A stretch of DNA of 20,000 nt from Atractiella rhizophila. Its lineage: Eukaryota. The notes beneath the pieces are model-generated. The model saw only the letters and a program-made list of their open reading frames with translations. It had not been told where the DNA came from and searched no databases. This document shows, piece after piece, positions 11,220 to 11,310 of the stretch (its first letter is position 1; each line of letters opens with the position of its first letter). The position numbers and the translations under genes are program-made. The DNA lies in assembly GCA_021432655.1 (NCBI GenBank), contig MU271372.1:59462-79461 (forward strand), given 5' to 3'.

Positions 11220-11310
11220 TGTGCGATGGTGTAGTTGGTGTATGGTTGGGTAGTTGAGTCTTGGCTCATTGGTGTTGGTGTGGGTTCGATTCTCAGTCAT
11301 GTCACATTTT
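11220..11310 (+). ncRNA. Degenerate tRNA-like / Pol III type-2 promoter module inside the Helitron (not a functional tRNA call)
   Basis: A-box TGGTGTAGTTGG (11227-11238) and B-box GGTTCGATTCT (11283-11293) with T-arm pairing TGGG/CTCA. Partial acceptor-stem complementarity (TGTG.. / ..CACA), followed directly by TTTT (11307-11310). D-stem and anticodon arm cannot be resolved. Confidence 0.6.

Follow-up and report, generated by a model that had tools for sequence, protein, structure and literature searches.

A Pol III promoter unit apparently captured from a host tRNA-Leu gene and retained in Helitrons of Atractiella rhizophila

We find that a Helitron family of Atractiella rhizophila carries, between its 5' end and its transposase gene, what appears to be a captured host tRNA-Leu gene together with its terminator, in which the A box, the B box, their spacing and the terminal T-run show statistical signs of constraint acting after the tRNA product became dispensable. 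The reading that we favour, at a probability of roughly 0.58, is that the unit has been kept as a TFIIIC/Pol III platform acting in cis, with any RNA incidental. The window, by which we mean the whole 20,000-nt stretch analysed (contig MU271372.1, positions 59,462 to 79,461), holds one copy of this family, F1, with the following features.

10825-14434, plus strand: Helitron copy of family F1, subfamily a (insertion between A and T, 5' TC, 3' CTTG; from copy and end alignments)
10825-11030, plus strand: 5' arm; runs collinear with its counterpart in the sister family F2
10899-11156, plus strand: tandem duplication with a unit of about 133 nt, in subfamilies a, b and e
11204-11226, plus strand: fastest-varying stretch, adjoining the A box on its 5' side, where Pol III would be expected to start and the acceptor strand once lay
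11220-11310, plus strand: tRNA-like module, apparently captured, in the Helitron interior upstream of RepHel
11220-11304, plus strand: degenerate tRNA-Leu body, from homology to host Leu genes
11227-11238, plus strand: A box TGGTGTAGTTGG, equivalent to tRNA positions 8-19
11255-11268, plus strand: small hairpin, its inner three pairs kept in subfamilies a and b only
11283-11293, plus strand: B box GGTTCGATTCT, equivalent to tRNA positions 52-62
11303-11315, plus strand: CACA, a T4 run (TTTT at 11307-11310) and GTCAC, in Pol III terminator geometry
11617-14176, plus strand: broken RepHel gene (ATG at 11617; frameshifts; PF14214, PF21530)
14406-14420, plus strand: subterminal GC-rich hairpin-like motif preceding CTTG, which also ends the mini and F1e elements described below

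The window copy has a 5' TC, an A/T insertion site (A/TC at 10824/10825 and G/T at 14434/14435), no target-site duplication, and Rep (HUH/Y2) and Pif1 helicase domains, as expected of a Helitron. F1 copies align from 10821-10831 onward, and most begin ATCC; the 3' end of the window copy recurs at two other loci (L020 and L084), and the terminus is CTTG in most copies and CTAG in two (L279 and L280), with the GC-rich hairpin-like motif present. The RepHel gene, which has an intron inferred from GT/AG and frame at 12248-12306, matched PF21530 and, below the cut-off, PF14214 (E 4e-4). Because the gene is internally deleted, from just past Rep motif 2 to the helicase C-terminus, and carries frameshifts, the window copy is predicted to be unable to make intact RepHel; a near-intact RepHel copy (L086) has 3074 relatives at E<=1e-30. 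Methylation-type decay of CpG sites in F1 copies (0.16 versus 0.02 per site) indicates silencing of the elements. We defined five F1 subfamilies (a-e) with very different interiors. Members of subfamily b (L017, L022, L025, L028 and L030) share a deletion that starts at about window position 11788 and extends through to the Rep domain's end, which argues that this subfamily has spread as a non-autonomous element with the module retained.

Helitrons in this genome often lie head to tail or nested (L263, L289, L243, L029, L020, L084), with short F2 elements inside F1e, a short F2 element directly before an F1 copy, or a 3' end abutting the next 5' end. At one locus (L094:1446-2100, upstream of RepHel) the sequence resembles the family 5' region reversed but not complemented; it adjoins an N gap and is probably an assembly artefact.

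The sequence-only reading had described an A box, a B box, a small hairpin and a TTTT shortly upstream of RepHel, and each was found at its claimed place. Scored with a matrix built from the B boxes of 36 host tRNAs, which themselves span 10.6-18.6 bits, the B box reaches 16.2 bits; it lies 56 nt from the A box. The T-run follows it after 13 nt (11-15 nt in 29 of 35 host tRNA genes) and ends 307 nt before the RepHel ATG on the same strand; the first T-run after the B box is likewise a T4 in 8 of 36 host tRNA genes. The parts of a type 2 Pol III unit are thus present, with both boxes, the spacing between them and a T-run as terminator. The interior is as C-poor as had been claimed (9% C in 36 aligned copies). 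Other parts of that description fared less well: neither the hairpin nor the remnant acceptor stem is conserved family-wide, the former being gapped in 21 of the 36 aligned copies, and the anticodon arm, called unrecognisable, retains an alignable remnant stem (ACTGA). Across the 20-kb window, A-type boxes (one mismatch allowed) show no excess over chance (26 versus 23.0 expected), and 35 of 200 shuffles hold as many B-type boxes as the window (3 versus 1.4 expected). It is because of the Leu homology outside the boxes and the persistence of the boxes across diverged subfamilies that we place the module above chance. A lone plus-strand B-box-like match at 16645-16655 has no A box or T-run at tRNA spacing and was treated as chance.

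Relatedness to tRNA-Leu is evident when the module is compared with 36 distinct host tRNA gene sequences (from 63 scored of 1911 candidates; several isotypes are absent). The body is identical to host Leu-TAG at 54 of 77 aligned positions, and five Leu genes take ranks 1-5 of the 36 against the subfamily a/b consensus. Outside the boxes the similarity to Leu has a z of 5.4, and none of 200 shuffles with the boxes held fixed reaches the score of Leu-TAG or Leu-AAG. Among 41 sources, a profile of 36 module copies matched only the window and three Leu genes (E 0.002-0.004), and missed two further Leu genes. This homology and the tRNA-gene spacing of the T-run together argue that the module represents a captured host tRNA-Leu gene with its own terminator. 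From a Leu origin it also follows that the extra 12 nt or so between the boxes, correctly noticed in the sequence-only reading, would be the long variable arm of a class II tRNA.

ARAGORN and Rfam found no tRNA or RNA family in the window. ARAGORN does call Asp at three other loci (L106, L111 and L113), which have an odd anticodon arm and diverge strongly from an ordinary Asp gene (L049); these are possibly mis-called or pseudogenes.

Searching the genome with the module gave at least 41 matches, all with Helitron flank (40 of 64 candidates were scored), and the module sits at an identical internal place in all 30 fetched loci, 29 of which extend to the 5' end; in the window copy that place is about 400 nt inside the end. 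Its presence in other copies, named earlier as a check, was confirmed for all main subfamilies. A tRNA-derived SINE inserted once into an ancestral Helitron would also bring a tRNA-derived head and an internal promoter. We regard this as very improbable: the unit lacks both a tail and a target-site duplication, its end is a genomic-type T-run placed as in tRNA genes, and Helitron flank accompanies all of the at least 41 matches, although a free copy, rare and diverged, might lie beyond the 40 of 64 candidates that were scored. The module is not a nested SINE, to judge from the missing tail and duplication, noted already in the sequence-only reading, and from the fixed internal place and the shared flank.

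Across four subfamily consensuses (a-d, from 10, 12, 3 and 5 copies), the boxes and TTTT are invariant at 22 of 27 positions and the rest of the body at 26 of 64 (p=3e-4). The A box is invariant at 10 of 12 positions, with changes at 12 and 13, TTTT at 4 of 4, and the B box changes at the subfamily level only at positions 52 and 59; these four box positions also vary among host tRNAs, and the fifth box difference is an artefact of a tie in group c, which has three copies. In the stretch immediately 5' of the A box, 3 of 16 and 1 of 7 sites are invariant across subfamilies. Relative to the wider flanks, in contrast, subfamilies a-d show no excess conservation of the boxes (22/27 versus 308/416, p=0.27). 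Because the flanks are equally conserved and 102 of 474 shifted box layouts do as well in a-d, we take the boxes to be islands in a fast patch and not peaks across the whole 5' region. The expectation that the boxes would be more conserved than their neighbours thus held for the immediate surroundings and failed for the wider leader.

A further contrast comes from F1e, a derivative of about 600 bp that lacks RepHel and keeps the module boxes. From 14 copies extracted independently of the boxes, 13 cover the module (L300 does not), and these carry variants at 6 of 24 box sites, against 65 of 70 body sites (p=2.5e-4) and 73 of 118 flank sites (p=0.014); the B box is gone in one copy and the T-run in one. 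Retention of the boxes in RepHel-less derivatives makes the earlier suggestion of an insulator shielding the transposase promoter too narrow. In single copies, the B-box CpG decays at the same rate as other CpGs (7/44 versus 89/547). These losses are scattered over the tips of the tree, as expected after insertion, and the CpG is intact in the subfamily consensuses.

The main rival to a retained platform is a passive passenger, a tRNA-Leu pseudogene that is bound and transcribed by default, with a fast body and shielded boxes and with no benefit to the element; in a variant of this idea, the apparent conservation of the boxes arises because a fast body is seen only in lineages whose boxes are intact. 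Several observations favour a passenger: the boxes only equal the leader in conservation in subfamilies a-d, the A box contains no C and so would be spared sense-strand deamination, private changes avoid the boxes as shielding predicts, and a module-less element has spread (both below). We nevertheless consider it unlikely, as the boxes have outlasted a 30% turnover of the tRNA body and the split into five subfamilies, the CpG hot spot in the B box survives in the subfamily consensuses with losses only at scattered tips, and F2 keeps a second, unrelated B box and T-run. Passive capture had been raised in the sequence-only reading as the alternative to a function; its account of the origin agrees with the Leu homology, and its passivity is at odds with the keeping of boxes and terminator while structure and interior drift.

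Signs of transcription come from the distribution of variants. In 12 long copies, the body with the 23 nt before the A box carries 40 variants at 76 non-CpG sites, against 28 at 116 four-fold and intron sites (p=0.001), so that body variation is about twice that of synonymous and intron sites; the stretch before the A box (11204-11226) carries 14 variants at 19 non-CpG sites, and the boxes 4 at 25 sites. With four-fold sites as the sole reference, the body excess weakens to p=0.019 (p=0.054 for singletons), and equal variability is seen in two other 30-nt windows. Private changes in 27 copies affect 52 of 102 patch sites, compared with 107 of 385 flank sites (p=4e-4) and 5 of 25 box sites. Relative to Leu-TAG, 10 of 18 C and 4 of 24 G have been lost, with no G>A (p=0.019). 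At tRNA loci, mutation is reported to be raised 7-10-fold, with a peak in the 20 nt upstream and in active genes (PMC6130373). Thus, the local mutation excess and the sense-strand loss of C would fit Pol III transcription of the unit, although a relaxation of constraint, or exchange of segments between subfamilies, might contribute to the pattern.

The product of such transcription is probably of little account. The fold of the module strand is not unusual relative to shuffles (z -1.5), RNAalifold finds 0 consensus pairs among module copies, cloverleaf pairs hold in 68% of cells (acceptor 64%, T-stem 67%), and compensatory cloverleaf pairs show no excess (3 versus 4.1 in shuffles). A functional tRNA gene is ruled out by the ARAGORN and Rfam negatives, the lack of consensus pairs and the poorly paired stems. 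A functional small RNA serving the element, for example as a decoy or guide, would account for the complete layout of A box, B box and terminator and for the indirect signs of transcription. We think it quite improbable: consensus pairs and compensatory excess are both absent, conservation is lowest in the interior, all 10 of the 10 aligned F1e copies (and 3 of 26 other copies) have T4-T5 runs that break up the unit between the boxes, and F2 has no comparable body. The earlier interpretation is thus partly upheld: capture of a tRNA gene, given there as the alternative, holds for the origin, and an element-encoded small RNA is not supported.

Not every F1 element has the module. Among 84 F1 5' ends we fetched 40 that have no a/b/c-type module nearby, and these comprise 19 with a diverged module, 1 that has lost its B box, 6 truncated ends and 14 (two identical) that belong to a 230-bp mini element lacking the module but complete at its 3' end. 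The mini element consists of the 5' arm (10825-11030) and the 3' end only, and its junction is crossed by 22 of 40 among the matches listed. Because this module-less element has spread, the module would not be needed for mobilisation in trans. The same element rules out the B box as the minimal cis segment for F1 movement.

The sister family F2, with a RepHel about 50% identical in amino acids to that of the window, shares the 5' arm (F1/F2 collinearity score 103-106 versus 57+/-7 in shuffles; 0 of 300 shuffles reach it). About 175 nt into this arm, F2 has a B box that reads on the opposite strand, with a T-run 12-14 nt beyond it. The box scores at least 11 bits in 53 of 57 distinct 5' ends (64 rows minus 7 duplicates), and of the remaining ends three score 8.7-9.1 bits and one has a deletion. 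In seven subgroup consensuses the B box is invariant at 9 of 11 positions and the T-run at 4 of 5, the stretches around them at 2/13, 0/8 and 2/29, and the arm at 87/120; the same box contrast is seen in 29 short F2 copies (p=3e-4). The pattern of B box plus tail has 77 exact matches, at least three of them tRNA-Ser genes, versus 1 for the control. No A box was found in any of five F2 ends tested. An abundant 260-bp derivative keeps the B box beside its 3' end (208 candidates, 40 scored). Short F2 elements fall into three 5'-arm clades with one common 3' end, for which a single origin with end-swapping fits as well as repeated deletion.

An inverted F1 cassette as the source of the F2 box is unsupported: the F1 profile has no match on F2 ends, the 13-nt tails are no more alike than host tRNA tails, and the collinear F1 arm has the TGACTGAGTCA palindrome at the place of the F2 box. 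Since the F2 box is not detectably an inverted F1 box, we are left with two candidate histories, a separate acquisition or the replacement of an older box in F1. As a possible source of the F2 box, the best of the 36 host tRNAs, chosen post hoc, is tRNA-Arg(ACG), with z 3.2 in one of five F2 ends. Motifs of the form TGA(C/G)TCA, which we take to be AP-1/Gcn4-like, occur at window positions 10859-10865 and 11142-11152 and at the same places in F2 5' arms; the first lies about 35 nt from the 5' end in F1 and F2, and the second, at the end of the F1 arm, sits where F2 carries its reverse B box.

Further afield the module was not seen. The sequence-only reading had proposed a survey upstream of RepHel in related Helitrons, and among 80 metagenome RepHel loci, the 43 with at least 846 nt upstream contain no comparable module, although these are 32-51% identical and many may miss the 5' end. 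ARAGORN found no tRNA on 46 metagenome loci except at L213 (1860-1933, minus strand), where a tRNA-Ile(TAT)-like piece with a terminator lies inside a decayed RepHel coding region and is probably part of a separate inserted element. Two distant RepHel-like genes of the same genome (L251 and L252; G000:C317 and C28), 27-29% identical to F1, have no module and no recognised Helitron 5' arm within 4 kb, and are either a third family or domesticated genes. For related families the outcome is thus mixed, as F2 has a different, reverse-strand B box but not the tRNA-like module itself. Elsewhere in the genome (L067:2530-2875, minus strand; G000:C161), a small element with about 50 genomic matches is bounded by direct terminal repeats of 80 bp (TG...CA) and contains a stretch resembling a primer-binding site, a tRNA-like piece with a palindromic B box, and an A-box-like motif at the repeat end; it looks like a TRIM that may own a Pol III promoter.

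We suggest the following sequence of events. An F1 ancestor would have captured a host tRNA-Leu gene and its terminator some 250-400 nt inside its 5' end, after which the tRNA product became dispensable while boxes, spacing and T-run stayed constrained. The unit may still assemble TFIIIC, TFIIIB and Pol III and, judging from the mutation excess and the sense-strand loss of C, may be or may once have been transcribed into a junk RNA of about 100 nt. The benefit would lie in the DNA and act in cis, as an open patch that raises the chance of a copy being expressed and/or mobilised. F2 would have come to resemble this by way of a lone reverse-strand B box and T-run in a different place. As a cis-acting platform, the module would help the element but is not required.

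How an open patch might help is suggested by yeasts, in which tRNA genes are nucleosome-free and give a box-dependent block to silencing (PMC7990762), and ETC and IR sites, which have only a B box, are bound by TFIIIC and serve as boundaries (PMC3395662). By analogy with these barriers, the unit could maintain a patch that stays open and resists silencing, placed between the nicking end and the promoter of RepHel; we take this step tentatively and at somewhat less than even odds. A conserved B box, as in barrier sites of the TFIIIC type, is present in both F1 and F2. According to a review, tDNA barrier function seems to require the full Pol III apparatus (PMC7990762), and F2, having no A box in the five ends tested, counts against a full-apparatus barrier. 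The wider proposal, that Helitrons here have twice gained TFIIIC sites near the 5' end and use them as a Pol III-barrier device against silencing, is possible but more doubtful still.

The same conservation data would also suit other actions of a Pol III unit. It might damp the RepHel Pol II promoter as self-limitation, and tRNA genes do repress nearby Pol II promoters in budding yeast; or it might unwind the 5' end for HUH nicking, given that the F1 5' end is AT-rich and that HUH nucleases cut only single-stranded DNA (PMC4778049); on the F1 unit, Pol III would travel away from the 5' end. We judge such actions improbable. Self-limitation leaves box conservation in the RepHel-less F1e unexplained, and unwinding is difficult to reconcile with the opposite orientation of the F2 B box, its lack of an A box and the module-less mini element.

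F1 resembles described Helitrons in most respects. HELPO1 and HELPO2 of the fungus Pleurotus ostreatus (PMC4289320) and Helraiser (PMC4778049) share with it the 5' TC, the A/T insertion site, a subterminal hairpin (a hairpin-like motif in F1), a RepHel with HUH and Pif1 domains, and non-autonomous derivatives, and known Helitrons capture foreign sequence including Pol II promoters (HelibatN3). F1 differs in its CTTG end, which is CTRR in those elements, and in carrying an apparently constrained Pol III promoter unit, as 'tRNA' and 'polymerase III' occur 0 times in the main text of either paper. In the open-access full-text literature, a Pol III promoter as a Helitron part was not found, and PMC3159450 treats targeting to B boxes, not their carriage. 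The closest parallel is an Arabidopsis tRNA-Cys cluster overlapping annotated Helitrons, for which capture of a tRNA gene by a Helitron was proposed in 2023 and which by its authors' account would be the first case of a Helitron capturing a non-coding RNA (PMC10701932). Those genes are intact and form a local tandem array near the putative 3' end of an element that three Helitron finders left unconfirmed (PMC10701932), whereas F1 is a clear, dispersed Helitron with a degenerate tRNA 5' of RepHel and constraint that seems confined to the promoter.

Yeast barriers such as the HMR tRNA-Thr gene, ETC sites and the Schizosaccharomyces pombe IR/COC sites offer likenesses of another kind, namely an A-plus-B unit of value for protein binding, as in F1, and a lone B box with a conserved 3' neighbourhood, as in F2. 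They are single host loci at which TFIIIC binding and barrier activity have been demonstrated (PMC7990762, PMC3395662), in contrast to the putative TFIIIC sites of F1 and F2, which are known from sequence alone and ride mobile elements in about 100 or more copies. The combination is Helitron capture joined to a putative tDNA-type TFIIIC site, both kinds being already known.

Retention of a host RNA-gene promoter while the RNA function decays is familiar from tRNA-derived SINEs and from Cassandra TRIMs, which have a 5S-derived Pol III promoter. Those are retroelements, whose Pol III transcript is the transposition intermediate. In contrast, a Helitron moves as DNA, and the F1 unit, about 90 nt long, stops at a terminator of its own.

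Studies of how transposons counter host defence usually look to the proteins that they encode. That only the promoter of a captured tRNA gene seems to have been kept points to a cis route, which would borrow the barrier activity of TFIIIC. If this is true, F1 would be a DNA transposon with its own tDNA insulator, scattering at least 100 TFIIIC sites through the host genome. Even with no barrier role, F1 is a clear example of a Helitron that has captured a non-coding RNA gene, an event called unreported in a 2023 paper (PMC10701932). Its many copies form a natural experiment showing what remains of a tRNA gene when its product is no longer needed, with module-bearing F1, module-less mini F1 and B-box-only F2 as natural controls in one genome. 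Our findings suggest that F1 uses the host tRNA-gene machinery as an aid at the level of its DNA, perhaps against silencing.
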